From Candidatus Aceula meridiana (GTDB lineage Bacteria > Omnitrophota > Gorgyraeia > Zapsychrales > Aceulaceae), in NCBI GenBank assembly GCA_030765185.1, contig JAVCDE010000033.1, positions 10,957 to 74,956 on the forward strand: DNA of 64,000 nucleotides, written 5' to 3'. Every line of letters starts with the position of its first letter. The first letter of the stretch is position 1. Shown piece after piece: positions 1 to 16,591 of the stretch. The notes below the pieces were generated by a model. It was not told the origin of the DNA and ran no database searches. It was given only the letters and a program-made list of their open reading frames with translations. The translations under genes and the position numbers were made by a program.

Positions 1-386
1 TTAACCAACCACCATTTTTCAATAAATCCTAAATGAATTCCTCTGTTGGGCAATTTCAAAATAGCTTCTCCAACAAACGGAATTATCGAATCGCTTATCG
101 TGGCAATGCCTACCGATCCCGCATAACCAATGACAAGCAAAATCCAAAAATTACATTTACCCTTTATACATTTGCTGTTTATCCGTCCGCACTCATGAAG
201 CTCATAAATAGAAGCAGTAACAAGAGCACTTAAAACAACATGAATAGGATGAAGAACATAGAATATATTATAAGAAATTTCTAAAGGTAAATTTTTGAAA
301 AACATCATAACGATGATGCCTGTAAATGCTCCAAAGAAAGTAAAGGGTGCATGGATTCTCAATTCTTTTAAAATTAATTTAAGCAT
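1..386 (-). CDS. Hypothetical polytopic membrane protein, 5'-partial (runs off the window start)
   Basis: My own minus-strand translation from the ATG at 386 gives a hydrophobic open frame (MLKLILKELRIHAPFTFFGAFTGIIVMMFF...HPIHVVLSALVTASIY...) with no stop before position 1. It sits 43 nt downstream of def. It is missing from the ORF track because it has no stop in the window. Confidence 0.4.
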   Translation of the reverse strand, partial: MLKLILKELRIHAPFTFFGAFTGIIVMMFFKNLPLEISYNIFYVLHPIHVVLSALVTASIYELHECGRINSKCIKGKCNFWILLVIGYAGSVGIATISDSIIPFVGEAILKLPNRGIHLGFIEKWWLV

Positions 387-429
387 CTCTTGCCCCCTTG
401 CAAATAATACTATTTGCCTACACCCTACA

Positions 430-927
430 TCAGGAAATCATTTCTTCTCTCCACTCTCTCTCAGCCTCAAACATCATTCTCTTTTTCAAAGAAAAATAAT
501 CAATAATAAGCTTACCTTCCAAATGGTCAATTTCATGCTGAAGAACCCTTGCCATCAACCCCTTGGCATTTATCTCTTGCGTTTCTCCTTTTTGATTTAA
601 CCCAGTTACAACAATTTCATAACTGCGCGATATTTTTATATAAACTTCTGGAATACTTAAGCACCCCTCCTTCAATGCATCGCTTCCTCTTTTATCAATT
701 ATTTTAGGATTAGCCAAAAATAGCGACCCTTCACCGATATCAGCCACAATAACTTGCTTCTGAATGCCAATTTGCGGACCCGCCAAACCTATGCCATCAA
801 AATGATGCATTATAAACAACATCTGCTGAAATAAATTCTTTTCCCTCTCCGTTATACGATTTACAGGCTGGCATTTTTTTCGCAAAATTATTTCAGGATA
901 TTTCTTAATTTCTAAAATATCCATCAT
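430..927 (-). CDS. def: Peptide deformylase
   Basis: 165 aa with the three canonical PDF motifs: GIGLAGPQIG, EGCLSIP and QHEIDHLEG. An ATGA overlap with the upstream radical SAM gene suggests translational coupling. Confidence 0.9.
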   Translation of the reverse strand: MMDILEIKKYPEIILRKKCQPVNRITEREKNLFQQMLFIMHHFDGIGLAGPQIGIQKQVIVADIGEGSLFLANPKIIDKRGSDALKEGCLSIPEVYIKISRSYEIVVTGLNQKGETQEINAKGLMARVLQHEIDHLEGKLIIDYFSLKKRMMFEAEREWREEMIS

Positions 928-1700
928 CCCTTGCCTCTCCTTTTTAAAGTATCTTTATCGCTAATAGACTTAATTTTATTTTTTTCCGCTTTATACACAG
1001 AAATTGTATTTAACCCATAAAAATAAGATTCTATTTGGTTTAATTCAAGCTCAGACAAAGGCTTTACCTTGCAAGGCCTAAGCGGTGTATTAATTTGAAC
1101 TTCAGAGGGATGAATTTCCCTAACGATTTCAGCAATTTCTTTCGCAGATTTCTTATTATCTTCGATAAACATAATTTGCAGAGCTAATTTTCCTTTATAA
1201 TTTTTCTTAAATTCTTTTATGCCAGAAATAATATGCTTAATCGTGATTGTTTCCAAAGGCCTATTGACTGTGTTAAAAATTCTCTGCGTAGAAGCATCAA
1301 GTTTTGCCATAACAAAATCTGCCGACAGCAAATCTTCTTGGACATCTTTTCTGTGCAACAAAGAAGAATTTGTAATCACGGCGATTTTCTCCCGCCGTAT
1401 TTGCTTTACCGCTTTTATCATTTTTCCCAAATTGCCAGCTAGCGTAGGCTCTCCGGCCCCAGAAAAAGTAATATAATCTATTTTCAAAGGAGGCAATAAA
1501 TCTATTTCTTCAATAATATCTCGACAATCAACAAAGGATTCTCGTTCATTGATTAATAAACTTTTCTTCTGGAGCTGGCAATAGCTGCAATCAAAATTGC
1601 AGACCTTCCTTCCCTTAAAAACAGGATCTACTCCCAAAGATCGGCCTAAACGCCATGACGGGACTGGCCCATAAATATACTTATAATTTTTATCACTCAT
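924..1700 (-). CDS. Radical SAM protein (small Fe-S oxidoreductase type)
   Basis: CNFDCSYC (CxxxCxxC) follows an N-terminal [15 protein letters not shown] motif typical of a small radical SAM family. It is part of the same tightly packed operon as apbC and the MinD-ferredoxin genes. Confidence 0.65.
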
Positions 1701-2520
1701 TTTCTAAACTATTAATAACTCTTTTAACAATATCATCCATACGACATGCTGAAAAATCATTACGGTTAAATTGAACAAAAGGTTTCCCGGCATCACCTTG
1801 CTTCACAATTTGAGAATCTATAGGAATGCGTCCTAAATAAGGAACTTTTAAATCCTCCGCCGCTTTTTCTCCTCCCCCTTGCCCAAATATCTCAATAGAT
1901 TTCTCGCAATGTGGACAAATAAAACCACTCATATTCTCAATAATTCCAAGAACAGGAACGTTAATAAATTTTGCGAATAACACACTTTTTCGAGAATCTA
2001 AAATAGCTACGTCCTGAGGAGTCGTCACAATAATGGCACCGCTTATCTGAGAAATGAGCTGGCAGACACTCAAAGGCTCATCCCCTGTCCCAGGGGGAGA
2101 ATCAATAATTAAATAATCTAAATCTCCCCAATCAACATCACTTAAAAATTGCTCAATCATCTTCATCTTAAGCGGCCCTCTCCAAATAATCGGCTGATCC
2201 TTGTCTTCCATTAACATCGAAATACTCATCGCTTTTAAATTCGGCAACACCAAGCATGGCTGTATTTGTTCATCCAGTGTTGAAATCTTTACATCTTCAA
2301 TTCCTAACATTTTTGCTATATTGGGTCCATGGATATCTACATCTAAAATACCAACACTGTTCCCCTGGCTAGCCAATTCATAGGCAAGATTAACAGCTAC
2401 CGTAGTTTTGCCAACTCCTCCCTTGCCACTCATAACAATAATTTTTTGTTTTATCCGCTGCATTTTCCCTTGAAGGCGTTTTTCTTTAGAAATTTCTTTT
2501 TTTTCATCAACTTTTTGCAT
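1693..2520 (-). CDS. apbC: Mrp/NBP35/ApbC family Fe-S cluster carrier ATPase
   Basis: Deviant Walker [22 protein letters not shown] plus the C-terminal CPHCE...GQGGGE Mrp signature. The ORF-track start at 2691 would overlap the upstream gene by 164 nt and add a Lys-rich low-complexity tail. An internal Met at 2520 (or 2463) is more plausible; which of the two is uncertain. Confidence 0.8.
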
Positions 2521-2527
2521 TTTTTTC

Positions 2528-3397
2528 CTAAATCTTTTGAATTTTTTCCCAAATTTTCTTAAAAGGCTCTGCAACCTCCTTATCAGGGTGCTCAGTGACG
2601 CTTTTGCGCTGCGTAACACAATCAACAATACGTCTATCAAACGGAATTTTTCCGACAACTTCAATTCCATCTTGTTTAGCAAAACTTTCAATTTTTTGCG
2701 CCATGTCGCTATTTAAATCAAACTTATTAATAACGATCTTAACAGGAACCTGAAAATGTTTCGCAACTTTAATGACTCTTTTCGCGTCATGAATTCCTGA
2801 AAGGCTTGGCTCAGTTACCACAATGGCGCAATCCACATCTGACAAAGACGCGATCACCGGACATCCTATCCCCGGAGCGCCATCGGTGACAACCTTCTCA
2901 CTTTTACCTTGGTTGGCAAGTTCTTTGCCCATTTGTTTAACAGTTGATACCAACTTGCCGGAATTTTCTTCGGCAACGCCCAGCTTGGCATGAACAAAAG
3001 GCCCAAATCTCGTCGATGACACAAACCAGTCTCCGGATATATTTTCTTGCATTTCAATCGCGCTGTGCGGGCAAGCTAAGGCACAAAACCCACATCCTTC
3101 GCAGGATATCGGATCAACAACATAAATGCCGTTAAGCTTGTCTTCCGCAATAGCAGAAAACCGGCAAAGCCCTTCGCAAAGGCCGCATGATTTGCATAAA
3201 TCTTTATTAATAACAGCTGTTTTTCCGCTTCGAAATTCATGTTTTTCTTCAACCTGCGGATTTAAAATTAAATGCAAGTTGGCGGCATCAACATCGCAAT
3301 CAGAAAAAACCGCGTTTTTTGCCAATGACGCAAAAGCCGCTGTCAAAACTGTCTTACCTGTCCCACCTTTTCCACTGATAATTAAAATCTGTTTCAT
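2528..3397 (-). CDS. MinD/ParA-family P-loop ATPase with inserted 2x[4Fe-4S] ferredoxin domain (paralog 1)
   Basis: SGKGGTGKT deviant Walker A. Two Cys clusters, [11 protein letters not shown] and [12 protein letters not shown], are inserted in the ATPase fold. The start was moved to [12 protein letters not shown] at 3397, which forms an ATGA stop/start overlap with the upstream paralog. Confidence 0.75.
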
Positions 3398-4233
3398 ACG
3401 GCAACCTTTGGTTGAATTTTTTCCCATAACTCTTTAAAAGCTTGTCGAAAAGAAGGCAGTGCCTCAACAATAAAATCACCCCTAGAATAAACTTCAGCAA
3501 TTTCTTTTTGAAAAGGAATTTTCATCAAAATTTCAATCCCATTTTTCTGACAAAAATCTTCTGTTTCCTGATTACCTAAATCCGATCGATTAATAATAGC
3601 TCCAAAAGGAATATTAAGTTTACGCAAAACCTCAACACTAAGCACAAAATCATTAAGCCCAAACGGTGTTGGCTCCGTCACTAAAATCACAAAATCGCTT
3701 CCCTTAATTGATTCAATAACCGGGCAGCTTGTTCCTGGCGGGGCATCAATAATCGCCACCATATCAGGACGAATATGTTCTTTAACCCTGCGGATAACCG
3801 GCGGCGCCATGGCCTCTCCAATCTTCATCCGCCCGGAGATAACATCGACATGAAGGCTTTCTCCTGTGGTGACAACGCCTATTTCTTGTTTTTCTTCGAC
3901 AATCGCGCCATGCGGACAAAAATACGAACACGCCCCACACCCGTGGCAAAGCTGAGGAAAAACAAGATGTTTTTTTCCAACAACAGCAATCGCGTTATAA
4001 ACACAAACTTCCTGACACTTGCCACACAACTGACATTTAGAAACATCTGCCTTTGGCACAAGCTTAAAAACTTTTTCTTCTTTCTTAATTTGCGGTTTTA
4101 AAAAAAGATGAGCATTAGGCTCTTCGACATCACAATCTAAAAGCTGACATGGAAAATCTAAAGACATCGCGAGGTTAGTCGCGACAAGAGTCTTGCCGGT
4201 CCCTCCTTTACCACTAGCAACGGAAACAATCAT
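3394..4233 (-). CDS. MinD/ParA-family P-loop ATPase with inserted 2x[4Fe-4S] ferredoxin domain (paralog 2)
   Basis: [15 protein letters not shown] Walker A, with CQLCGKCQEVC and CHGCGACSYFCP ferredoxin motifs. Tandem paralog of the gene at 2528..3397. Confidence 0.75.
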   Translation of the reverse strand: MIVSVASGKGGTGKTLVATNLAMSLDFPCQLLDCDVEEPNAHLFLKPQIKKEEKVFKLVPKADVSKCQLCGKCQEVCVYNAIAVVGKKHLVFPQLCHGCGACSYFCPHGAIVEEKQEIGVVTTGESLHVDVISGRMKIGEAMAPPVIRRVKEHIRPDMVAIIDAPPGTSCPVIESIKGSDFVILVTEPTPFGLNDFVLSVEVLRKLNIPFGAIINRSDLGNQETEDFCQKNGIEILMKIPFQKEIAEVYSRGDFIVEALPSFRQAFKELWEKIQPKVAV

Positions 4234-4248
4234 AAAAAACTTTCTCCT

Positions 4249-4854
4249 TTATTTTGCGCTTGCAACAAGCATCTTTTGATGCTTTGTTTCAGAAAACTGT
4301 GTTTGAAAATTCTTCTTATGAAGAAAGTACACCATGGCCTCCCAACAAACATTAAAAAATTTATGCTCACGCCCTTCATTTTTATGAAGACTGTCGATAA
4401 GACGCAAGCCTTCCTGATTAAAATCATTGATGACAATCGTAGCCTTTGGCTTACAAGCACGGATGATCTCTCTTAAAACACTAAACTGATTTTCCATGTG
4501 ATGAAAGCTGTTAACACAAAAAACTATATCAAAAATCCCGTCGCTAAAAGGCATATCAATCGCATCCGCAACCTGAAAATTAACTGCTTCGCTTAAGCCA
4601 AAGTCGGCAAGATTATTTTTAGCAATTTGCTGCTCTTGAGACGAAATATCAATACTTGTAAACTTATAGCCTTTTTGGGCCAAAGCTATTGCAAAATATC
4701 CTTTACCACTGCCGACTTCTAAAATTTTCCCTTTAATCGGCTCAACTTTCTCAATAACAATCGCACGCTCAGCATCAACATCATACCCAAACTTATCATA
4801 AAGAACCTTATGCTTTAAATGCTCTTGTATTGCGTTTGCAGATGCATTAGCCAT
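4249..4854 (-). CDS. Class I SAM-dependent methyltransferase
   Basis: Motif I ILEVGSGKGYFAIALA plus post-I and motif II (DIVFCVNSFHHM). The start was moved to MANASANA at 4854 to remove a 26-nt overlap with the NifX-like gene. Confidence 0.7.
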   Translation of the reverse strand: MANASANAIQEHLKHKVLYDKFGYDVDAERAIVIEKVEPIKGKILEVGSGKGYFAIALAQKGYKFTSIDISSQEQQIAKNNLADFGLSEAVNFQVADAIDMPFSDGIFDIVFCVNSFHHMENQFSVLREIIRACKPKATIVINDFNQEGLRLIDSLHKNEGREHKFFNVCWEAMVYFLHKKNFQTQFSETKHQKMLVASAK

Positions 4855-4855
4855 G

Positions 4856-5218
4856 CTATGCCCCTGACTTAGAATCAACATTAGAACCTTCGGATAAGGT
4901 CATTTCGCCTTTTTTATATTTCTCAACGGCTTCTAAAACAGTGCCTGTTGCTCCTAAACAAAATTTAATACCCGCAGCTTTTAGAGTATCGCTAGCGTTT
5001 GGCCCTATATTTCCTGTCAAAACACACTCAACGCCCTTGTCAGCCATCAGGCGTCCTGACTGGATGCCAACCCCACCGGTTCCTTGAGCATTCACGTTCT
5101 CAATAACCTCAAAATCCAGCGAATCAACATCCACGGCTAAAAAATATTTCGCGCGGCCGAAACGTGGGTCAACAAGTGCTTGTAAATTATCTCCCTGGGC
5201 AGTGACACAAACTTTCAT
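4856..5218 (-). CDS. NifX/NifB-C-terminal-like (dinitrogenase FeMo-cofactor biosynthesis domain) protein
   Basis: 120 aa with the MKVCVTAQGDNL...VDPRFGRAKYFLAVDVD pattern and later GVECVLTGNIGPNA..L...GIK, typical of the small NifX-like/DUF134 fold. Confidence 0.65.
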   Translation of the reverse strand: MKVCVTAQGDNLQALVDPRFGRAKYFLAVDVDSLDFEVIENVNAQGTGGVGIQSGRLMADKGVECVLTGNIGPNASDTLKAAGIKFCLGATGTVLEAVEKYKKGEMTLSEGSNVDSKSGA

Positions 5219-5241
5219 AAGACTATCCTTTTTTTTATTTG

Positions 5242-5625
5242 TTATTCGTGTGCGTGATCACACTCGGTTTTGTCAAGGCCATAGCCTTTACCCGAACGCG
5301 GCTCGCAAGGTTTATCATCGCTTGTTAAATTATTATTTAAAAACTGCGTAACGGCTTCATCGACAGAAACCTCAACACCCAAAATCGGAGTAATTTTCTT
5401 CTCTTCAAAAAGAATGCGCGCCCTCTCGCCCATACCGCCGGCAATAATATGGCTAACACCTCTCTGGCCTAAAAACTCCGGCAAAAAACCAGGATGATGG
5501 CCAGGATTATCAATAACCTCTTTGCTTACGACTTGTCCATCTTTAATATCAACTAAAGTAAAAAATGGGCATCTTCCAAAATGCGCGGATACAAAATCAC
5601 CATCTGTTGAAATGGCTATTTTCAA
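5242..5625 (-). CDS. NifX/NifB-C-terminal-like domain protein (paralog)
   Basis: 127 aa with MKIAISTDGDFVSAHFGRCPFFTLVDIKDG...SHIIAGGMGERA, the same fold family as the neighbour at 4856..5218. Confidence 0.65.
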   Translation of the reverse strand: MKIAISTDGDFVSAHFGRCPFFTLVDIKDGQVVSKEVIDNPGHHPGFLPEFLGQRGVSHIIAGGMGERARILFEEKKITPILGVEVSVDEAVTQFLNNNLTSDDKPCEPRSGKGYGLDKTECDHAHE

Positions 5626-5650
5626 AACAACCTCCTTAAATTAACTATTT

Positions 5651-6025
5651 TTATCCTTTAGACTTTTTTTCAGCTTCTAAATGCTTGATGTCGTGCTGAA
5701 CAACATCCATTTGCTGCTTTAACATTTCAGCTTGCATTTTAAGCGTTTCAAGTTCTTGGCCGGACACTGGTACCTGCTGAGGATATCCTCCTTGCGCTCT
5801 AGCCCCTAATCCTAATCCTCGACCAAACCCCTGGCCTCTTCCTCGGCCTAAGCCCATGCCTAATCCTCGGCCTAAGCCCATGCCTAATCCTCGGCCAAAA
5901 TAAGGTGCTTGTGCAGCTTGAGGGCCGCCTTGAGAATCTTTTGGGTTAGGAACAACACAGTTTCCCATTCCCCATCCTGTCATTGGGCCCACTCCTTGAG
6001 GGCCTCTTCCATCTCGTGCTGGCAT
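5651..6025 (-). CDS. DUF5320-family protein (Gly-rich N-terminus, coiled-coil C-terminus)
   Basis: Starts MPARDGRGPQGVGPMTGWGMGNC, a typical DUF5320 N-terminus, then Gly-rich GRGLGMGLGRG repeats and a C-terminal coiled coil. A strong RBS (AAGGAGG) precedes the ATG at 6025. The ORF-track start at 6070 would overlap fur. Confidence 0.6.
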   Translation of the reverse strand: MPARDGRGPQGVGPMTGWGMGNCVVPNPKDSQGGPQAAQAPYFGRGLGMGLGRGLGMGLGRGRGQGFGRGLGLGARAQGGYPQQVPVSGQELETLKMQAEMLKQQMDVVQHDIKHLEAEKKSKG

Positions 6026-6038
6026 AACATACCTCCTT

Positions 6039-6500
6039 TTATTTAGATTGACATTGACCACAGATACCATAAAAATGAATAATATGGTCCTGAATTTGAA
6101 ACTTATATTTTTTACTTAAGCCTTTTTCAATTTTTGACAAAAATTCTTTTTCAGCATCCATAAAATCCGCGTAATCAATAACTTTTTGGCACTTCTGGCA
6201 AACGAGATGATGATGATGTTCTGCGCCGCTCTCACTCTCAGATAATTCATAATTTGCTTTACCATCTCCAAAATTAAATTTAGACACAGTGCCCATATCT
6301 ACTAAAAGTTCAAGGTTTCGATAGACCGTAGTCAAGCCGATATTAGAATATATCTTATGAACAGAAAAAAAAATATCCTCAGCGCTTAGATGTTTTTTGG
6401 ATTTTGCTAAAACACCTAGGATTAATTCCCGGGGTTTTGTAAACCGGTATCCGCCTCCCTGAAACTTTCCCCTCCAACATTGAGATCCTCGAGTCCTCAT
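6039..6500 (-). CDS. fur: Fur-family metal-responsive transcriptional regulator
   Basis: Winged-helix N-terminus plus HHHHLVCQKCQKV and FYGICGQC metal-site motifs. The start was placed at MRTRGS (6500), which has an AAGGAG RBS. The ORF-track N-terminal extension is hydrophobic and runs across the Fur box. Confidence 0.8.
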   Translation of the reverse strand: MRTRGSQCWRGKFQGGGYRFTKPRELILGVLAKSKKHLSAEDIFFSVHKIYSNIGLTTVYRNLELLVDMGTVSKFNFGDGKANYELSESESGAEHHHHLVCQKCQKVIDYADFMDAEKEFLSKIEKGLSKKYKFQIQDHIIHFYGICGQCQSK

Positions 6501-6517
6501 AAAAATATTCTCCTTAT

Positions 6518-6538
6518 TGATAATGATTGTCATTATCA
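6518..6538 (-). promoter_or_regulatory. Fur box (21-bp palindrome TGATAATGATTGTCATTATCA) just upstream of fur
   Basis: Read directly in the sequence. It matches 17 of 19 positions of the classical Fur-box consensus GATAATGATAATCATTATC and is a near-perfect inverted repeat. It lies 18 nt upstream of the fur start codon. Confidence 0.7.
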
Positions 6539-6603
6539 ATATAGAACATAAAAGGCCATTTGTCAAATAATTTAATTTTGGTAAATAGGGTTTAGGTGAC
6601 TCT

Positions 6604-6728
6604 CAGATGAGCTTAATTTTACGCCCGGAGATTTTCAGGCGCTTTTGAATAAAAAGCACAATCGCCTTTGGATAGAGCTTGTGCTCTAGCTTGTGGATGC
6701 AGACTTCAAGAATTAAAGATATTTTCAA
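6604..6728 (-). pseudogene. Degenerate duplicate of the purN 3' end (remnant fragment)
   Basis: The minus-strand translation LKISLILEVCIHKLEHKLYPKAIVLFIQKRLKISGRKIKLI* matches the C-terminus of the intact purN at 8228..8350 (LKTLESRIHKLEHKLYPKAIQLFSQGRLKIFGRKIILR*). The two have the same length and stop position and about 70% nucleotide identity. The fragment directly abuts the FG-GAP gene stop codon. Confidence 0.6.
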
Positions 6729-6730
6729 AT

Positions 6731-8038
6731 CTATTCAATAGCAGGCTTCTTTTGTACATTATGCTTTTGAATAATATTTTTATATATATAAACTGCTCCA
6801 GAAAATGGACCGCTTGCCCAGTCATGAGGAGCTCCTGCGACAAAATGCTTTTCAGACAAAGAGACAGAAGAACCAAACATATCTCCCGGGAAGTCTGTAG
6901 ATTGTCTTGTTACCTCATGCCAATTTTCAACGTGTCTCGCAAAAATAGATGCTTCCCTAGATCCAACAATAGCATAATTTCCAGAGATAAAAACTGACTG
7001 CCCAAAATTATCATCGCCGCTATTTGGCAAAAATGTCGTCTGCGCTATCCATTCTGTACCGTTTCGCTTATAAATATACGCTGCTCCGTGAGGATTGCCG
7101 CCATTCATTCCAAAGGGCGTGCCAACGATTAAATAATCACCTGAAATAGCGCATCGTAAATGCGTATAGCTATTCCAAAGATCGGTTATCTGTGAATGCA
7201 AAGCCCAAACAGCTGCGCTTCTCTTGTAAATAATCACCTTGTCAACACCACTCGCTACACCTGCCGCAACATAGTCTCCTGAAATAGAAATTGAACTTCC
7301 AAGCACCATGTCCATCGAGCTGCCAGAAAGTAATTTTGCATCTTCACTCCAATTGCCAAGGGCATCTCTTTTAAAAACATAGATAGCTCCATGCCATAGA
7401 TTCTTAGCAGGAGCTCCAACAATCGCGTAATCACCTGAGATCGCAACAGTAGTGCCGAACTCATCGTTTGTCTCTCCATCGCTAGCAAAAAGTTTTGATA
7501 TAAAATTCCAATTTCCAGAGCCATTTCGTTCATATATATATGCGGAACCAGACCTGTAGCCATGGATTCCATCGTCGTGATAAGCCCCAACAATAGCATA
7601 ATCGCCGAAAATCGCGACTGAAGTACCAAACGAATCTCCGTTGCCTCCATCGCAAGGAACAAGTTGCTTAACACAAACCCAACCCGTCCCGCTCTCATGC
7701 TCATAAATACGTGCAGACCCCGAAGAAATCCCAATGATATTATCTTGCGGCGCCCCAACAACAAAATAATCACCAGAAATTGAGACAGAGCAGCCCATCC
7801 TTGAGCCTTGGTCTCCAATAATTTTTGTTTCTGGAAAAACTATCCCAAAAGACCCATCCTTAGAAGGTATTGTTCCAGGTTTAATATTTGGGTTAGTGTT
7901 TCGGGAAAAAGATTTTAGAATGTCGCTGTCGGAAAAATACGTTGAAATTTTAGGAGCCAAAGGGGGCCCTTCACTACATAGCCCGTTTCCAGAAAGCGTA
8001 ATAAAAATAAACACTCCTAAAATAAGAATCTTTTTCAT
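6731..8038 (-). CDS. Secreted FG-GAP repeat protein (predicted 7-bladed beta-propeller)
   Basis: N-terminal signal peptide. Seven recurrences of the FG-x-SV-x-ISGDY-x-VGAP motif (SVSISGDYFVVGAP, SVAIFGDYAIVGAY, TVAISGDYAIVGAP and others), which is the FG-GAP signature. Confidence 0.7.
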   Translation of the reverse strand: MKKILILGVFIFITLSGNGLCSEGPPLAPKISTYFSDSDILKSFSRNTNPNIKPGTIPSKDGSFGIVFPETKIIGDQGSRMGCSVSISGDYFVVGAPQDNIIGISSGSARIYEHESGTGWVCVKQLVPCDGGNGDSFGTSVAIFGDYAIVGAYHDDGIHGYRSGSAYIYERNGSGNWNFISKLFASDGETNDEFGTTVAISGDYAIVGAPAKNLWHGAIYVFKRDALGNWSEDAKLLSGSSMDMVLGSSISISGDYVAAGVASGVDKVIIYKRSAAVWALHSQITDLWNSYTHLRCAISGDYLIVGTPFGMNGGNPHGAAYIYKRNGTEWIAQTTFLPNSGDDNFGQSVFISGNYAIVGSREASIFARHVENWHEVTRQSTDFPGDMFGSSVSLSEKHFVAGAPHDWASGPFSGAVYIYKNIIQKHNVQKKPAIE

Positions 8039-8227
8039 TATATTTTCCTCTCATGATTTTGCGCTATTATTAATTTAAAAACTATTATAAACGTGGGTTC
8101 TCGTTCTATTTTTATTAATAAAAGTATAACATATATTTTATCTCTTGCCCAAAATAGACAAGGTTTAGAGAAAAATCGAACATATCCAAAATATTGGAAC
8201 ACAATGACTTATAAAATTTTAGCTGAT

Positions 8228-8827
8228 TTATCGAAGGATTATTTTCCGCCCAAAAATCTTGAGACGTCCTTGGGAAAAAAGCTGGATGGCTTTTGGGTAA
8301 AGTTTGTGCTCTAGTTTGTGGATTCGGCTCTCAAGTGTTTTGAGGGTATCTTGGGGGCGGATGATGACAGGCTCTTGTAAAATGATAGGCCCATGGTCGA
8401 CTTTCTCGTCAACAAAGTGCACGGTCACGCCAGTAAGCTTTGCTCCATAATCAAAGGCATCTTTAATGGCATGCGCGCCTTTAAATGACGGCAAAAGCGC
8501 AGGATGAATATTAAGGATCTTTCCTTTATAAGCCTTAACAAAATAAGGCGATAAAATGCGCATATATCCGGCCAAGACAATAAAATCAATTTTAAAATCT
8601 TTAAGCTCACGGATAACGGCTTTATCAAAGGCCTCGCGGGTCTTAAATTTCTTTGGGTCAACAACCGTTACCGGAATGCCTGCCTTTAATGCGCGCGTTA
8701 AGACGTAAGCTTTTTTCTTATCAGAAACCACAAGACCAAGCTGTGCTTTAATTTTTTTAGACTTTACGGCAGAAATAATCGCCTGTAAGTTTGTCCCGTT
8801 GCCGCTTGCTAAAACTGCAAATCTCAT
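8228..8827 (-). CDS. purN: Phosphoribosylglycinamide formyltransferase
   Basis: MRFAVLASGNGTNLQAII start, HPALLPSFKG and DxGPII motifs, 199 aa. Confidence 0.9.
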   Translation of the reverse strand: MRFAVLASGNGTNLQAIISAVKSKKIKAQLGLVVSDKKKAYVLTRALKAGIPVTVVDPKKFKTREAFDKAVIRELKDFKIDFIVLAGYMRILSPYFVKAYKGKILNIHPALLPSFKGAHAIKDAFDYGAKLTGVTVHFVDEKVDHGPIILQEPVIIRPQDTLKTLESRIHKLEHKLYPKAIQLFSQGRLKIFGRKIILR

Positions 8828-10110
8828 TTATTTTCTCCGTTAACCGGTAAAAGCTCATTTTGCTTTTTGTATTGTAGCAGTCCAAAGAGCCCAACAAAAG
8901 CAAAAAGACACCCGACCCCGATTAAAATTTTAAAATTCTCGACCTTCAAATTTTCAGAAAGATGCGCGCTTAAAAACATGGCCATAAGAAACCCTAAATG
9001 CATGACGACTTCCAAAGCGCTAAAAACACGCCCTCTCATTTCATCTCGGCTAACCTCATGAACAATGGTGTTCGCTGCAATAAAGACCGGGCCGGTCACA
9101 AGCCCGACGAGAAACGTAAGCGCTGCGGCCACCGGAAGCTGCGCAAAACGATGAAGAATGGTGGCAAATGCCACCATGGATATTCCGCCTAAAATTAAAC
9201 AAACAAAAATCGTTTTAAAACGCGAGGCTTTTTGTCCAAAACGGCCATAGGCAATCGCACTCGTCAGAAGCCCAAGCCCTAAAACAACGGCTAAAATCCC
9301 AAGGTCCCGGGTAACGCTTTGAAGCGATTCCTGGATAAAAACAATAACAACAACATAAATCGCCCCTGCGGCTGCAAACAAAATAAACATCATCGTGGTC
9401 ACAAAACGAATTTCGCGATGCTTAAAAAAATAGACTATCCCCTCTTTAATTTCGTCAAACAGAGACTTCCTTAAAACTGTGATAATCTTTCTTCCTTCCT
9501 CGGCTAACTTGTGCGTATCCACATAAAAATTAATTTTCTGAGTCATCGAAACCACAAGAATTCCTGAAATAAAAAATGTGACTGCATCCCAAATGAAGCC
9601 GCCGCGGGGGCCTGCTTTCTCGACTAAAAGTCCGCCAAAGGCGCAACCAAAAGCAAAAGCCAACATGCCCGTCATTGACACAAGAGAATTCGCCATCAAA
9701 AGCCCTTTTTCGTCAACTAAATCCGGAATAATCGACATCTTGGCCGGAACATAAAAACGGCTTAAACAAAAAATAAGAAAAACAACCGCGTAAATGGGCA
9801 CCATTGATTCCCAATAAATAAAAATAAACGGAATCGTCAAAACCAAAAGACCACGCAGAAAATCGCAGATAAAAAGAGTTTTTCTCCTGTCCCAGCGATC
9901 TACATACGCGCCGGCAATAGGGCCGACTAAAAAAACAGGGATAATCGTAAAAGATAGGAGCTTGGCAAGCCCCACCGTTGAGCCGGGTGTGCGCGCGGCA
10001 ATCAGGCCGATTAAAGCCATTTGGTTGATGCGGTCACCAAATTGAGAGATAATTTGAGCCAACCACAACCTTAAAAAATTTTTATTTTTAAAACTTTCGA
10101 GGACTGACAT
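8824..10110 (-). CDS. MFS transporter
   Basis: 428 aa with 12 predicted TM segments and an MFS-like GDRxxR motif near the N-terminus. ATGA overlap with purN. Confidence 0.7.
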   Translation of the reverse strand: MSVLESFKNKNFLRLWLAQIISQFGDRINQMALIGLIAARTPGSTVGLAKLLSFTIIPVFLVGPIAGAYVDRWDRRKTLFICDFLRGLLVLTIPFIFIYWESMVPIYAVVFLIFCLSRFYVPAKMSIIPDLVDEKGLLMANSLVSMTGMLAFAFGCAFGGLLVEKAGPRGGFIWDAVTFFISGILVVSMTQKINFYVDTHKLAEEGRKIITVLRKSLFDEIKEGIVYFFKHREIRFVTTMMFILFAAAGAIYVVVIVFIQESLQSVTRDLGILAVVLGLGLLTSAIAYGRFGQKASRFKTIFVCLILGGISMVAFATILHRFAQLPVAAALTFLVGLVTGPVFIAANTIVHEVSRDEMRGRVFSALEVVMHLGFLMAMFLSAHLSENLKVENFKILIGVGCLFAFVGLFGLLQYKKQNELLPVNGENK

Positions 10111-10155
10111 ATAAAATTATTTTATCATTTTGTAAAAATTGCGGACATAAAAATT

Positions 10156-11916
10156 CTAGTTATTTTCTAAAAGCTCAAGATCTTCATAGCAGCGATGGGC
10201 CTCTTCTTCCCTGTTAAGGATGCCATACGTTGAACAAAGATTAAAAAGGGCGTTTCTTAAACCGGGATCAAGCGACAAGGCCTTCTTGTATTTGGCGATA
10301 GCTTCCTCGTGTTTATCTGTCTTCGAATACACAACGCCCATGCTGTAAAGAAGCTGAGCATTGTTGGGTTCTTTTAATAAACGCTTTTGATATCCTTCCA
10401 TGACTCGCCGATAGCCCAGTTCACGATTAGAATCAAAAACCGGCCGTAAGTCAGAAGGGTCTTGGACCTTTTCAAGCTCAGCTAAACCCTCCCAGTAGCG
10501 TCCCTGGTCAATTAAACTTGCCCCAAGGCCTATCAAAGAACGCATGTTCTTTTCATCGTAAGAAAGGGCCGCACGAAAATGTTTTTCGGCCTGCTTAAAG
10601 CTTCCAAGCTTTGCATATCGAAATCCTAGAGAAGCATGAATACGGGCATTAAACGGCTGATACCTTAGGGAACGCTTTAGCATCGCTGCCTCGTTTACGG
10701 CATGAAGATTTTGTTCAGCTGTTATCATGCTTAAGAAAATAACCCAACCTAAAAAACAAAGGCGTGAAGCTAAAGGTGAAACGAGTTTTCTTGATGTTAT
10801 CTTCTTGTAGGCCTGACGAAGCCCTAGCACCACAAGTGCCAAAAGCCCCACCGCCGGCATATAGAAAAAATGCTCACTTGCCATAATGTATCCGGCCTGT
10901 GGCCGCAACGGGAAAACCTGAGAAACAGGAAACACCGCAAGTGCTGCAAAGCTCATAAAAAATAATACTCGACGAGAAAACCGCTTATAAAATTTTGCTA
11001 AAACAAATAAGAATCCTCCCCACCCTAACAGAGTCGCCACCGCCTGCACATTGAAAAAACTTCTGAAAACCGGTTGTAGCCGATCCGGGTGTAGATCAAC
11101 AGGGAGAATGAGAATACGGAAATATGTAAAAAGCGCCCGCCAAAAAGTGATAATTCCGAGGAAGAAGTCTTGCGCGGCTAATGTGCTTGGCAGGCGGACA
11201 ATGCCTAAGATTTTGCGCACACTAAGATAAAAAACAACAACACCGGCAAAGCCAACGAGCGGTTTGGACAAGCGAATCAAATTTCTTTTTTGATCTTTGC
11301 AAAAGAAAAAATTGTACGCCAAGAGCACAGCCGGGAGCATAATCGCGGACTCTTTCGATAAAAGTGCTAGGGCAAAACAAAGTACAGCGAGAATGTAATA
11401 GAGCGCCTTCCTCCTTTTTTGAAAAAGAACGTAAAATAAAAACGTGGCTAACTGAAAAAGAGCGCACAACAAAATCGAGCGTCCGGCAATGTTTGAAACA
11501 GCCTCAGTGTGAACCGGGTGCAGCATAAATAAAAAAGCAATCCAGAAAGCAATCATGGAATCTTTTAGAATCAAACTCATCAGGAGAAGAATAATAATGC
11601 TCGTCGCTAAGTGCAGAATAACATTTGTCAGATTAAACGCCACCGGGTTAAGCCCGAAGAAGTGATTCTCGACAGCAAAGCTAAATGTCACTAAAGGACG
11701 GTAATAAGTATTTCTTAAAAAGAATGACTGGGCGAATGCCTTTGACGCATGGTTAAAGTTTCTAACATAAGGGTTTTCTAGAATAGAAAACTGATCATCG
11801 AGGACTTTAAATGAAGATGCCAGCATAAAGGAATAGAGAATAAAACCAACAACTAAAAGGATAATAATCTTAAGGAATAGGCTTGAAGCAATGTAGGAAG
11901 AGAATTTTTTTATCAT
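10156..11916 (-). CDS. Polytopic membrane protein with C-terminal TPR repeats (PMT/TMTC-like GT-C architecture)
   Basis: About 11 N-terminal TM helices are followed by about 200 aa of TPR-like repeats (AEKHFRAALSYDEKN..., EEAIAKYKKALSLDP). Confidence 0.5.
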   Translation of the reverse strand: MIKKFSSYIASSLFLKIIILLVVGFILYSFMLASSFKVLDDQFSILENPYVRNFNHASKAFAQSFFLRNTYYRPLVTFSFAVENHFFGLNPVAFNLTNVILHLATSIIILLLMSLILKDSMIAFWIAFLFMLHPVHTEAVSNIAGRSILLCALFQLATFLFYVLFQKRRKALYYILAVLCFALALLSKESAIMLPAVLLAYNFFFCKDQKRNLIRLSKPLVGFAGVVVFYLSVRKILGIVRLPSTLAAQDFFLGIITFWRALFTYFRILILPVDLHPDRLQPVFRSFFNVQAVATLLGWGGFLFVLAKFYKRFSRRVLFFMSFAALAVFPVSQVFPLRPQAGYIMASEHFFYMPAVGLLALVVLGLRQAYKKITSRKLVSPLASRLCFLGWVIFLSMITAEQNLHAVNEAAMLKRSLRYQPFNARIHASLGFRYAKLGSFKQAEKHFRAALSYDEKNMRSLIGLGASLIDQGRYWEGLAELEKVQDPSDLRPVFDSNRELGYRRVMEGYQKRLLKEPNNAQLLYSMGVVYSKTDKHEEAIAKYKKALSLDPGLRNALFNLCSTYGILNREEEAHRCYEDLELLENN

Positions 11917-12937: not shown

Positions 12938-14482
12938 TTAAACTTTTTCTTCTTGAGGTTTTTTTTCTATCTGCAAATCTGTCCGCCAAGAACGAGCAGC
13001 TATAAAAAGTGATACAACTAAAGCAACCAAAAGCCAATCTCGGCCAATCAAAATAACAGCTATCCAAGAATAATCGCCATAAGGTTTAGCTGACTCCTTA
13101 ACGATGTCATTAATTAGCAAAATGGCCAAGGCTGAAGGTGTTAAAAAACGAATGCAAAAATCCCACAGCTTACTTAACGTCCATTGAGCGCTGTGATTAA
13201 TGTGCTCACGTAACTTTTGAGATTTTAAAACCCAACCGACTAAAATACATTGTAAAATTCCAATGGTAACAAGCCCATAGTGTGTGATGAAGTGATCAAC
13301 AATATCAATCCAATATATTCCGGCATTAGTCGCAAAAAGCATACTGCCAAAAAATCCTGTGACGCACACCGCTGTTACAATCACACGGCGGGAATAATGA
13401 AACTTATCAATAATGGCCGAGGTAAACGCCTCAATTAAAGAAATCGCACTCGAAAGTCCCGCAATCACAAGTGTGCTAAAAAATAGAACACCAAATATCT
13501 TTGCAAAACCAGGCATCAAGCTAATCGCCTGCGGATAAGTAACAAAAGCCAAACCAATAGATTCTTTAACGACCTCAGAAACAGGCTTTCCTGTTGTCGT
13601 CGCCATATATCCTAAAACACCAAAGACCGCAAATCCCGAAATAAAAGAAAAAAGGCAATTGCCAACGCTAATCGTTAACGCATCCTTAACAATGTTGACC
13701 TTGCGCGGAAGATAAGAAGCATATGTCATCATAATGCCAAAGCCCAATGAAAGCGTAAAAAAGATTTGAGAAAACGCATCAATCCAAATCTGTGGTTTAG
13801 AAAGAAGTGAAAAGTCAGGAGTAAGATATTGCTTAATCCCAACTGAAGCCCCCTTCAAGCTCACACTCCAAAAAACCAAAATAAGAATAAGAACAAACAA
13901 CAAAGGCATAAAAATCTTATTTGCCTTTTCAATGCCTTTTTGAACACCAAAGAAAACAATAACCCAACATAATGTCCAAACCCCAAGCAATGAAGAAACA
14001 ATCGGCGTGCGCACATCACCGATTAAGCCCGGTGCTGCGCTGACCTGGAGATATTCATTAAAAAAAAAGTTGTTAGGGTCCATGCCCCAGGAAAGATTAA
14101 AAGAAAAGAAAACATAGCTTAAACACCACGCAATAATAACCGCATAATAAACCATAATGCCAAACATCGCGCAGTTAACAGACCACCACCCAGCCCATTC
14201 CCAATGACGGTCAACTTTAGCAAAACACATCGGCGTTGAGCCGCGCATCTTGTGCCCTAAGCCTAGCTCCAAGATCATCAACGGAACACCAACGACAAGA
14301 AGAGCAATGCCGTAAGGAATAAGAAAGGCCCCTCCCCCATTTTTATAACAAAGATAGGAAAAGCGCCAAATGTTTCCAAGGCCCACGGCTGAACCTAAAG
14401 CCGCGAAAATAAACCCCATCCGCGACCGCCATTGCGGGCGCGGATGATGAGATTCACTCAATTGTGTTGCCTTGTTCGTCAT
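12938..14482 (-). CDS. Neurotransmitter:sodium symporter (NSS/SNF) family transporter
   Basis: GSAVGLGNIWRFSYLCYKNGGGAFLIPY signature near the N-terminus and 12 predicted TM segments. Confidence 0.85.
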   Translation of the reverse strand: MTNKATQLSESHHPRPQWRSRMGFIFAALGSAVGLGNIWRFSYLCYKNGGGAFLIPYGIALLVVGVPLMILELGLGHKMRGSTPMCFAKVDRHWEWAGWWSVNCAMFGIMVYYAVIIAWCLSYVFFSFNLSWGMDPNNFFFNEYLQVSAAPGLIGDVRTPIVSSLLGVWTLCWVIVFFGVQKGIEKANKIFMPLLFVLILILVFWSVSLKGASVGIKQYLTPDFSLLSKPQIWIDAFSQIFFTLSLGFGIMMTYASYLPRKVNIVKDALTISVGNCLFSFISGFAVFGVLGYMATTTGKPVSEVVKESIGLAFVTYPQAISLMPGFAKIFGVLFFSTLVIAGLSSAISLIEAFTSAIIDKFHYSRRVIVTAVCVTGFFGSMLFATNAGIYWIDIVDHFITHYGLVTIGILQCILVGWVLKSQKLREHINHSAQWTLSKLWDFCIRFLTPSALAILLINDIVKESAKPYGDYSWIAVILIGRDWLLVALVVSLFIAARSWRTDLQIEKKPQEEKV

Positions 14483-14491
14483 AAAATAAAA

Positions 14492-16591
14492 TTATTGCAT
14501 CAATGCATTTTTCAAAATAAAGGCAGCAAAAACAATAGAAACCATACTCATTAATTTAATAAGAATGTTAATGCTCGGACCCGAAGTATCTTTGAAAGGA
14601 TCACCAACTGTATCACCAACAACAGTTGCCTTGTGACAAGCTGAGCCTTTACCTCCTAGGTTTCCTTCTTCAATATATTTCTTGGCGTTGTCCCATGCCC
14701 CACCTGAATTCGCCATCATAACAGCTAGAACAAATCCCGAAGCAGTAGCGCCCATTAAAAGGCCGCCAAGACTATTAACGCCTAAAAGAATACCCACAAC
14801 AATTGGAGTTAAAATCGCAAGCATCGCCGGCAAAATCATTTCTTTAAGCGCTGACTTTGTAACGATATTAACACAACTCGCATAATCCGGTTTTCCTGTT
14901 CCTTCCATGATTCCAGCAATTTCCTTAAATTGGCGACGGACCTCAAAAACAATTTGTCCCGCAGCACGGCCAACCGCACTCATGGTAAGAGCTGAAAAAA
15001 GATATGGCATTGCAACACCGATAAAAAGACCAATTAACACAGGCGGATTCATAAGATTTAAATTGAAATCAAAATCAATCATGCCCGAGGCAGCAACCTC
15101 TAACAAAATCTTTTCTTTAAATGATGCAATAAGCGCAAGCGCTGTAAGAGCTGCTGAACCAATCGCAAAACCTTTTCCAGTTGCAGCGGTTGTATTACCT
15201 AAAGAATCTAAGGCATCTGTTCTTTTGCGAACTTCCGGCTCAAGACCAGCCATCTCGGCGTTTCCGCCGGCATTATCTGCCACAGGCCCGTAGGCATCTG
15301 TTGCCAAAGTAATGCCAAGAGTACTCAACATTCCAACAGCCGCGATACCAATTCCAAATAACCCTCCTAGCCAATAGCTTAAGAAAATAGCCACAGCAAC
15401 AATAAGAACTGGGATAACTGTTGAAAGCATCCCGAGCGAAAGCCCTTCGATAATAACGGTCGCAGGGCCTGTCTCTGAAGCCTTGGCAACTTTCTTGGTA
15501 GGCGAAAAATGAGACGAAGTAAAATACTCTGTAACCAATCCAATCAAAAGGCCAGCAACTAAACCAGTCATAACAGAGAAAGCAACTTTTAAAGGAATTC
15601 CTGGAAACCAATATTTAATCACAACAAAAACTAAAATACCAACTAAGACAGAGGCGATATTAACACCTTTATGCAATGCCTTTAATAAAGTTTTCTGTGT
15701 AGCGTCTTCAGTTGTGCGGACAAAAAACATTCCAGCGAATGACGAAAGAATTCCCATCGCTGCAATAACCATAGGAAGCATCAGCCCTTGCACGCCATAT
15801 CCTGCAGCAACACCTAAGGCAGCGGAAGCGACAATAGAACCAACATAAGACTCAAAAAGGTCTGCTCCCATACCCGCGACATCGCCTACGTTATCACCTA
15901 CGTTATCAGCAATAACCGCCGGATTACGAGGATCGTCTTCCGGAATTCCAGCTTCAACTTTTCCAACTAAATCTGCGCCAACATCAGCAGCTTTTGTAAA
16001 AATTCCTCCACCAACACGGGCAAACAAAGCCAAAAAACTTGCGCCAAGGCCAACCGTCAACATAACGCTTGTAATCGCAACATCCCCGCTTGCGATGCCT
16101 TCAGGCAATGGATGAGAAGAATAAAAACCTCTGAGGAAAAAGTACCAAGCCGTTAAATTCAAAAGGGCAAATCCGACAACAGAAAAACCCATAACCGCTC
16201 CCGAAGAAAATGCCAAACGAAGCCCTCCATTAAGAGAAGTTCGGCAAGCATTGGCTGTTCTGGCCGAAGAGGCGGTGGCGATTTTCATTCCGCAAAAACC
16301 GGATAATCCTGAAAAAAATCCTCCGGTTAAAAAAGCAAACGGAACAAAAATAACTAAATACCCCCTTAGAGATAAAAACAATAAAATGGCAAAAACCGCC
16401 GCAAAGAAAATCGCGACCCATTTATATTGACTTGTCAAATACGCTGAAGCGCCTTCGCGGACAGCCGCGGCAATTTCTTTCATCCGGTCAGTTCCCTCAT
16501 CTTTTTTTAGAATTGAAAAGATAAGGAATACGGCCGTTCCCAATGCAAGAACTGCGGCACCCGGAGCTAAAAAACTAATAAATTGTGACAT
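14492..16591 (-). CDS. hppA: Membrane-bound ion-translocating (H+/Na+) pyrophosphatase
   Basis: 699 aa. Three diagnostic motifs are present: [35 protein letters not shown] and [24 protein letters not shown]. Confidence 0.9.

Follow-up and report, generated by a model that had tools for sequence, protein, structure and literature searches.

Why would a gene for a Fur-type regulator head a tightly packed run of genes for metal-cluster proteins that leads on to a peptide deformylase gene? The question is raised by a 64,000-nucleotide (nt) stretch of the genome of Candidatus Aceula meridiana (Omnitrophota; contig JAVCDE010000033.1, positions 10,957 to 74,956), called here the window and numbered from its first nucleotide, in which the genes from fur to def follow each other on the minus strand. 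In an initial annotation the products of these genes had been taken for uncharacterised proteins. Judged from the protein sequences, however, the core of the cluster is homologous to the cluster that encodes the ORP (orange protein) complex of Desulfovibrio, a kinship not recognised at that time, and the genes can hardly be called uncharacterised since their ORP homologues co-purify or receive Fe-S clusters from MrpORP in vitro. We consider it probable that the locus is the Omnitrophota form of the ORP cluster of anaerobes, carried on one transcript behind a Fur box and devoted to an ATP-driven trafficking of Fe-S or other metal-sulfur species that would be derepressed at low iron. Four alternatives are weighed below at the points where the evidence bears on them; each has some support, and each fits less well the geometry of the Fur box, the gene partners or the conservation of the locus.

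The run extends from position 6500 to position 430 and is packed as an operon (Table 1). It contains ten genes, one more than had been counted, and the protein families proposed for them were borne out by searches with Pfam and NCBIfam models. Once five starts are corrected, the spacers from fur to def measure 13, 25, 23, 1, 15, −4, 7, −8 and −4 nt, in accordance with the ATGA overlaps and the maximum spacer of about 25 nt that had been noted. The corrected starts have Shine-Dalgarno-like sequences ahead of them, and that of the methyltransferase, checked by length, gives 201 amino acids (aa) against 201-206 aa in its homologues. Because 51 of the 53 open reading frames (ORFs) of at least 110 aa in the window lie on the minus strand, co-orientation carries no weight as an argument for an operon, but the tight packing does. 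A terminator scan returned 12 terminator-like sites, all of them within coding sequence and not clearly in excess of the shuffled expectation of 7.2 +/- 3.1, and none in any spacer of the operon. The 5' boundary is given by the promoter and by a gap of 164 nt upstream of it; a terminator between the promoter and the FG-GAP gene on the far side was considered and rejected, the candidate folds being no better than those of shuffles (z −1.2). At the opposite end def had been regarded as the last gene, but an 11th ORF starts 43 nt after it and no terminator lies between the two.

Table 1. Features of the fur-def run and its immediate surroundings in the window.
Feature	Coordinates	Strand	Description	Corrected start
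sigma70-type promoter	6538..6566	-	TTGACA 6566..6561, 17-nt spacer, TATATT 6543..6538; 11/12 match	
Fur box GATAATGACAATCATTATC	6519..6537	-	adjoins the -10 element; ends 18 nt before the fur ATG (6500)	
fur	6039..6500	-	first gene; 153 aa; PF01475, 108 bits	
DUF5320 protein	5651..6025	-	124 aa; PF17253, 57 bits	ATG 6025
NifX-like 1 (NifX1)	5242..5625	-	127 aa; PF02579 (Nitro_FeMo-Co), 73 bits	TTG 5625
NifX-like 2 (NifX2)	4856..5218	-	120 aa; PF02579 (Nitro_FeMo-Co), 81 bits	
class-I S-adenosylmethionine (SAM)-dependent methyltransferase	4249..4854	-	201 aa; Methyltransf_11/25/31	ATG 4854
MinD-type ATPase A	3394..4233	-	2x[4Fe-4S] ferredoxin insert, Orp3/Orp4 type; CbiA/ParA P-loop	
MinD-type ATPase B	2528..3397	-	2x[4Fe-4S] ferredoxin insert; CbiA/ParA P-loop; start overlaps the stop of A (ATGA)	ATG 3397
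Mrp/ApbC/NBP35-type Fe-S carrier ATPase (Mrp)	1693..2520	-	275 aa; PF10609 (Mrp/NUBPL ParA), 331 bits; GKGGVGKT, CPHC	ATG 2520
radical SAM enzyme	924..1700	-	258 aa; PF04055, 53 bits; CNFDCSYC motif	
def, peptide deformylase	430..927	-	165 aa; TIGR00079, 140.4 bits against a cut-off of 103.95	
11th same-strand ORF	1..386	-	starts at 386 and leaves the window; membrane-like, His/Cys-rich	

The relationship with the ORP cluster follows from the match of NifX2 to the orange protein structure, the motifs of NifX1, the Orp3/Orp4 features of the ATPases and the matches to the MrpORP model. In the Desulfovibrio complex Orp3 and Orp4 are paralogous ATPases with two [4Fe-4S] ferredoxin motifs each, Orp5 is homologous to a small [2Fe-2S] protein, Orp8 is the orange protein itself, with a non-covalent Mo-Cu-S cluster ([S2MoS2CuS2MoS2] in D. 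gigas), and Orp9 (MrpORP) is a fusion of an Mrp with a Di-Nase domain; Orp3, Orp4 and Orp8 co-purify, and MrpORP transfers Fe-S clusters to apo-Orp3-Orp4-Orp8 in vitro (PMC6345978). The best match of NifX2 in the PDB is 2WFB, the orange protein of D. gigas (E 2.9e-19), with an identity estimated by eye at 40-45% over the alignment, and the window protein that matches best is NifX2 rather than NifX1 at the ORP position of almost all of about 80 Desulfobacterota loci. By these measures NifX2 is a homologue of the orange protein (Orp8). NifX1 and Mrp share a single family model, NF041136 (MrpORP), which matches Mrp with 374.7 bits over model positions 1-254 and NifX1 with 98.6 bits over positions 265-365. 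NifX1 thus corresponds, as a protein of its own, to the C-terminal Di-Nase domain of MrpORP/Orp9, and it is similar also to Orp5-type proteins. In the alignment of its homologues the conserved residues H15, C19, H43, C107, C122 and H124 fall into HFGxC, HxPGxxP and C-terminal CDH motifs, and HFGxC, HxPG and CDH motifs have been described (PMC6345978). The PDB matches of Mrp are Cfd1, ApbC and AF_226 (E 1e-59 to 1e-63); its score against the ApbC model, 239 bits, lies under the cut-off of 348, and its sequence places it clearly among the Mrp/ApbC/NBP35 carriers.

The homology of NifX2 to a protein that binds a Mo-Cu-S cluster invites the idea that the locus handles thiometallates of Mo, W or Cu, with NifX2 carrying a cluster of the D. 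gigas type either for detoxification or for cofactor supply. In NCBIfam the radical SAM enzyme has its best matches, weak ones, with MoaA and a tungsten-cofactor maturase, which would agree with such a function, but the scores of about 50 bits, against cut-offs of 284-380, are generic for radical SAM cores. Moreover, the regulator and its box are of the iron (Fur) type and no ModE-like or CsoR-like control is seen, genes for Mo/W transport or molybdopterin are absent from the operon, and we read the literature as leaving room for a physiological ligand of the orange protein other than the Mo-Cu cluster. Thiometallate handling is therefore held to be very unlikely.

ATPases A and B both carry the deviant Walker A motif GKGGTGKT and two CxxCxxCxxxC motifs, and none of the eight ferredoxin cysteines varies among 32 homologues of ATPase A. 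Three further cysteines are invariant in the same 32 proteins, C34 (in LDCD), C170 (in DAPPGTSCP) and C228, possibly as ligands of one more metal or cluster site where the two subunits of the dimer meet. The name MinD calls to mind a cell-division or positioning system, in which MinD-like ATPases would act through membrane-targeting helices, as was first proposed for the ORP complex of D. vulgaris, and in which the link to Fur would be incidental. Loss of orp expression causes morphological defects in D. vulgaris, where MrpORP is found at the pole (PMC6345978), and the predicted model of the window ATPase has a long C-terminal helix (residues 260-278). The window proteins themselves speak otherwise. 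Against the minD_arch and minD_bact models the ATPases score 24-62 bits, far under the cut-offs of 202-213, so the possibility raised in the initial annotation that they might prove to be genuine MinD proteins, or that the genes might fall into unrelated families, did not materialise; minC and minE are not nearby, all partner genes encode metal-cluster proteins, and the conserved Fur control indicates a metal physiology. We give the cell-division reading hardly any credence.

The gene order is kept across genomes, as the initial annotation had anticipated it should be. Eighty Desulfobacterota loci were found with the D. gigas ORP sequence, and the ten window proteins were mapped on them by tblastn (loci are designated here by L numbers). 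Most of them contain, in order, ORP (best match NifX2), ATPase A, ATPase B and a NifX1-like gene. To these L019, L029, L047 and L082, among others, add Mrp, and L027 and L072 add Mrp and the radical SAM enzyme. In L034, with Mrp, the radical SAM enzyme and DUF5320, everything is found except the methyltransferase of what will be called the extended set (DUF5320, the two NifX-like proteins, the two ferredoxin-bearing ATPases, Mrp, the minimal radical SAM enzyme and the SAM methyltransferase). A Clostridia contig (L086) has the order two DUF5320, Mrp, radical SAM, NifX, DUF134, NifX, two ATPases, methyltransferase, ARMT1-like. The order ATPase A then B is maintained in the Omnitrophota, Clostridia and Desulfobacterota loci. 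On Omnitrophota-type contigs (L002, L003, L005, L087, L088 and L090) the arrangement is FUR-DUF5320-NifX-NifX-(methyltransferase or small ferredoxin)-ATPase-ATPase, and DUF5320 directly precedes the NifX pair in every Omnitrophota locus examined. Such loci usually go on with DsrE, DUF364, TauE, DUF169, ARMT1-like (DUF89) and Lactamase_B genes, a set that the window cluster does not have. Other genes, also absent from the window cluster, occur downstream in L002, L003 and L087-L090, among them thioredoxin and DnaJ-like genes, with a pyridine-nucleotide disulfide oxidoreductase gene between the two ATPases; L090 has an EncFtn-like gene, and L002 has a peroxiredoxin gene between the NifX genes and rubrerythrin as a neighbour.

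In L005, L089 and L090 the same-strand cluster extends to the gene for the 258-aa radical SAM enzyme and to def, both downstream of the ORP-type genes, and hence the presence of def, which had been pointed out as an oddity, recurs in relatives. L005 and L089 have Mrp immediately before the radical SAM gene, and there the radical SAM gene and def are likewise adjacent. The Mrp-radical SAM-def segment is a separately conserved block that in the window has been fused directly to the ORP block, ATPase B being joined to Mrp in the most compact version of the cluster. In L089 def is split between two called ORFs of 103 and 74 aa (9777..10390), which could reflect a frameshift or pseudogene, or else an assembly error.

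Control by Fur is the second element of our proposal. The sequence TTGACA-17-TATATT is the best promoter match in positions 1..8300 (11/12), and the adjoining box, GATAATGACAATCATTATC, has a single mismatch to the 19-bp Fur consensus (18/19) and stands 18 nt upstream of fur, as had been described. It is the sole site with at most three mismatches in the 64 kb, with none expected from 100 shuffles. A site with four mismatches at 52842..52860 lies within the coding sequence of mnmG (GidA) and was judged a chance match. Corresponding boxes are found in L002 (GATAATGAAAATCATTATC) and L003 (GGTAATGATAATCATTATC), each 18 nt before the fur ATG and next to a TTGACA-17-TATAxT promoter, the single mismatch being a different one in each. 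When seven upstream regions of fur are aligned, the -35 and -10 elements and the core of the box are invariant and the spacers diverge. In two relatives, moreover, a second Fur-box-like site with four mismatches lies between fur and DUF5320 (L005, 5401..5419; L088, 4313..4331). The additional box suggests direct control by Fur of the downstream genes, which would be Fur targets even where fur is set apart from them.

The association was also found on a wider scale. A metagenome scan with an alignment of Omnitrophota Furs gave 80 loci, in which neighbours were counted on the same strand within 3 kb downstream of fur, provided that at least 1 kb of downstream sequence was available. Genes for DUF5320, NifX or ATPase follow fur in 28 of the 37 loci with a Fur of at least 43% identity and in 2 of the 18 with more distant Furs. 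Of 46 loci, 30 have a site with at most four mismatches to the Fur consensus in the 150 nt ahead of fur, as compared with 1 of 33 control stretches taken 1 kb further up. With regard to the regulator itself, the NCBIfam scores are 131 bits for Bacillus-type Fur, 89 for E. coli-type Fur, 78 for PerR and 34 for Zur, all under the equivalog cut-offs. Aligned with the Fur proteins of E. coli and B. subtilis, it retains the HHHH motif, the two CxxC pairs and, in the metal-site columns, H37, E85 and H139. The G/C at the Fur-specific positions in the half-sites of the 7-1-7 box, together with the model scores, led us to set aside PerR and Zur; the regulator is Fur-like. On this comparative evidence, control of the operon by iron seems well supported. 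No report of Fur control of ORP-type genes was found in the searchable literature, itself incomplete, and searches for Fur with NifX-like or MinD proteins, or for Omnitrophota with Fur, gave nothing relevant; control by Fur looks to be the new part of this ORP-type cluster.

It might be objected that the locus is not one iron-controlled unit at all: fur would be autoregulated only, the genes downstream would depend mainly on internal promoters, and strand bias and compaction would mimic an operon. The near-complete bias of the window towards the minus strand is in line with this, as are the 240-nt gap after fur in L003 and the several genes that part Mrp-radical SAM-def from the ORP block in L005, L089 and L090. 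The arrangement in the window argues in the opposite direction, with 13 nt between fur and DUF5320, no spacer above 25 nt and spacers devoid of terminator-like sites, and so do the added Fur box directly before DUF5320 in L005 and L088 and the frequency with which ORP-type genes follow the related fur genes (28/37). A merely apparent operon is thus regarded as most improbable.

The gene following fur encodes the least familiar of the proteins. DUF5320 begins with the motif MPxxDGxGPxGxGPMTGxGxGxC, containing one cysteine and invariant in the alignment of homologues; a cationic stretch rich in Gly and Arg (and aromatic residues) occupies its middle, and a heptad-like repeat, read by eye in the alignment as a coiled coil, its C-terminus. 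The Gly/Arg-rich part varies greatly in length (the homologues have 87-162 aa). In the window it is encoded by a near-tandem DNA repeat, ggcatgggcttaggccgaggattaggcatgggcttaggccgagga (5830..5900, minus strand). No relative was found in the PDB and nothing on the family in the literature. The composition of DUF5320 recalls the tail of IssA, which is to be taken as a lead and not as a result. IssA of Pyrococcus furiosus has a NifX-like IPR003731 domain and a tail, cationic and rich in glycine and aromatic residues, for which a role in wrapping thioferrate was proposed (PMC5524996). By analogy, the operon could build an Fe-S store of the IssA type, in which the NifX-like domains nucleate an anionic thioferrate-like polymer, DUF5320 serves in trans as the polycationic tail, and the ATPases and Mrp mobilise the stored material. 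The shared composition following the N-terminal motif, the constant position of DUF5320 just before the NifX pair and the iron-handling neighbours in relatives (the EncFtn-like gene of L090, the rubrerythrin and peroxiredoxin of L002) are consistent with a store. However, where a box overlaps the transcription start, iron-loaded Fur as a rule acts as a repressor, whereas a storage protein should be produced at plentiful iron; production of IssA coincides with an abundance of iron and sulfide (PMC5524996). In addition, neither NifX1 nor NifX2 has an IssA-like tail, and the likeness between DUF5320 and the IssA tail is compositional only. A store of this kind is, in our opinion, unlikely.

The trafficking function that we favour could work as follows. 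With sufficient Fe(II), holo-Fur would occupy the box that covers the region of the transcription start and throttle the operon. Since fur is the first gene of the operon, repression would be self-limiting and a basal expression would persist, including that of the essential def, so that the supply of deformylase would be kept. As iron falls, the operon would be derepressed. For proteins of the Mrp type, a bridging [4Fe-4S] cluster and the ability to load Orp3/Orp4 are on record (PMC6345978); the Mrp dimer of the window would similarly bind a bridging [4Fe-4S] cluster on its CxxC motifs and pass it to the ferredoxin inserts of both ATPases, with the transfer from MrpORP to Orp3/Orp4 in vitro as the precedent. 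The ATPase pair, most likely a heterodimer, would then load, reduce or hand over metal-sulfur species by means of ATP binding and hydrolysis and of its low-potential clusters; these species would be carried on NifX2, the orange-protein homologue, and on the Cys/His-bearing NifX1. The sequences show which genes are present, their homology to Orp proteins, their packing, the promoter with its Fur box and the conservation of these features; whether low iron raises expression, how clusters move between the proteins and which target they serve in the cell are points that we infer. The description of the genes as a complete scaffold, carrier and insertase module, given in the initial annotation, likewise keeps the standing of a proposal.

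The comparison with the D. vulgaris Hildenborough cluster (orp3-orp4-orp5, orp7-orp8-orp9 and OrpR) defines what is shared and what is not. Both organisms are anaerobes, and both clusters contain an orange protein (NifX2, like Orp8), adjacent paralogous ATPases with two [4Fe-4S] motifs (like Orp3 and Orp4), a small Di-Nase protein bearing Cys and His (NifX1, like Orp5 and the C-terminal domain of Orp9) and a CxxC carrier of the Mrp/NBP35 type (like the N-terminal domain of Orp9). The genes of D. vulgaris form two divergent operons, whereas those of the window form a single collinear one, with DUF5320, the SAM methyltransferase, the radical SAM enzyme, def and the membrane protein of the 11th ORF as extras.

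Several observations weigh against our interpretation. The D. vulgaris orp operons are under sigma54, IHF and the redox-sensing OrpR, whereas the window has a Fur box and a sigma70-type promoter; a sigma54 -24/-12 site is absent from the minus strand between 430 and 6730, the count over the whole window being at chance level, and none of the ten operon genes encodes an enhancer-binding protein. MrpORP is a fusion in Desulfovibrio, whereas its halves are separate genes in the window, five genes apart, and Mrp alone remains under the family cut-off of NF041136 (374.7 against 450 bits). A match to DUF134 (PF02001) is missing among the ten window proteins and present in the Clostridia contig L086 and in Bilophila L061, where DUF134 and ORP domains occur in a single ORF; Orp7 we take to be the DUF134 protein adjoining the orange protein gene. 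Lacking three features of the family, namely a fusion of Mrp with Di-Nase, control by sigma54/OrpR and a gene for DUF134, the locus is a variant rather than a plain member of the ORP clusters. In a fold search with the ATPase, MinD, HypB-type Mrp, ApbC, BchL and NifH all came within two Z units, and for this reason fold searches do not separate a MinD-like role from a NifH-, CooC- or Mrp-like one. Repression by Fur of an operon that includes the essential def is awkward unless it is partial or an internal promoter is present, and one upstream of Mrp is possible because Mrp-radical SAM-def is separately conserved (L005). The single transcript and its response to iron are also inferred. Finally, even in Desulfovibrio the physiology of the ORP complex has yet to be settled, a cell-division phenotype having been reported there (PMC6345978).

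The cluster could belong to one of the established pathways of Fe-S assembly, but its composition indicates that it is not ISC, SUF or NIF, in agreement with what had been claimed. With nitrogenase maturation (NifB, NifX/NafY, NifH) it has in common the carrier domains of NifX type and dimeric deviant-Walker-A ATPases of the NifH fold class. The window ATPases have a conserved cysteine seven residues after the switch-II Asp, a spacing that matches that of NifH; they differ from NifH in the inserted 2x[4Fe-4S] ferredoxin domain. The statement that the window has no nifHDK genes stands for nifH, since tblastn found no nifH-like gene (and no fmt or second def) in the window, nifD and nifK not being among the queries. 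With IssA the window shares a NifX-like IPR003731 domain and a Gly/Arg/aromatic cationic segment within one system. In the window, however, this segment belongs to a separate protein, DUF5320, with its own N-terminal motif and the heptad-like C-terminal segment read as a coiled coil, and the implied repression by iron is the opposite of IssA regulation. The suf operon of E. coli resembles the operon in having a Fur box at the promoter of an Fe-S-handling unit, an arrangement that predicts derepression on iron shortage; it differs in that the window has no homologues of SufBCD, SufS or SufE and has fur as the first gene.

A bolder version of the trafficking proposal would make of the extended set a distinct and widespread anaerobe pathway, ATP-driven and concerned with Fe-S or modified metal-sulfur cofactors, of a standing comparable to ISC, SUF and NIF, switched on in Omnitrophota at iron shortage and with DUF5320 as the polycationic partner of anionic Fe-S species. 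We rate this as rather unlikely.

The core is accompanied by DUF5320, the methyltransferase and the radical SAM enzyme as conserved accessories. The methyltransferase has no NCBIfam match above its cut-off and occurs at the matching position in L002, L003, L088, L089 and L090. For the radical SAM enzyme, PDB searches by single sequence and by profile found nothing. A fold search ranked NifB first, but by so small a margin that no NifB-like function is assigned. With only one conserved cysteine beyond the SAM cluster, the enzyme cannot hold the K-clusters of NifB. The def translation contains the catalytic motifs GIGLAGPQ, EGCLS and HEIDH. The 11th ORF has no Pfam match. Homologues with 66-69% identity occur in two relatives: the one in L090 immediately follows def and a Zn-ribbon gene, and the one in L102 lies downstream of fur at a distance of about 3.1 kb, its place being given by the distance to fur only. 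HPIH and HECGRINSKCIKGKC stand out as motifs in the sequence of the 11th ORF.

The orange protein was reportedly described more than 20 years ago, and the ORP complex is said to go back to the work of Fievet in 2011. The role of the complex is still debated, both cell division and the maturation of Fe-S proteins having been proposed. A clade of Furs, mostly on Omnitrophota-type contigs, now turns out to head ORP-type clusters behind a conserved Fur box, and this linkage supplies an independent, regulation-based clue to a role in the economy of iron and Fe-S clusters rather than in cell division. The operon would in this way link the poorly understood ORP system to iron supply. Moreover, Fe-S biogenesis in strict anaerobes is poorly known, and the larger gene set found across three phyla (DUF5320, Mrp, the 258-aa radical SAM enzyme, the methyltransferase and the membrane protein) offers candidates for its biochemistry. 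The conserved placement in the cluster of def, whose product is an Fe(II) enzyme, is a further lead.

As for the surroundings of the operon, the gene directly upstream of the fur promoter (6731..8038, minus strand) encodes a secreted-looking FG-GAP_2 protein with six repeats, and an FG-GAP_2 gene at the equivalent place in L002 makes it a syntenic upstream neighbour. The GC skew is negative over all of positions 1..10000 and the gene strand bias is extreme, as in a single replichore. Genes for an SNF-family sodium symporter (12938..14482) and an H+-translocating pyrophosphatase (14492..16591) lie nearby and are unrelated to the operon.

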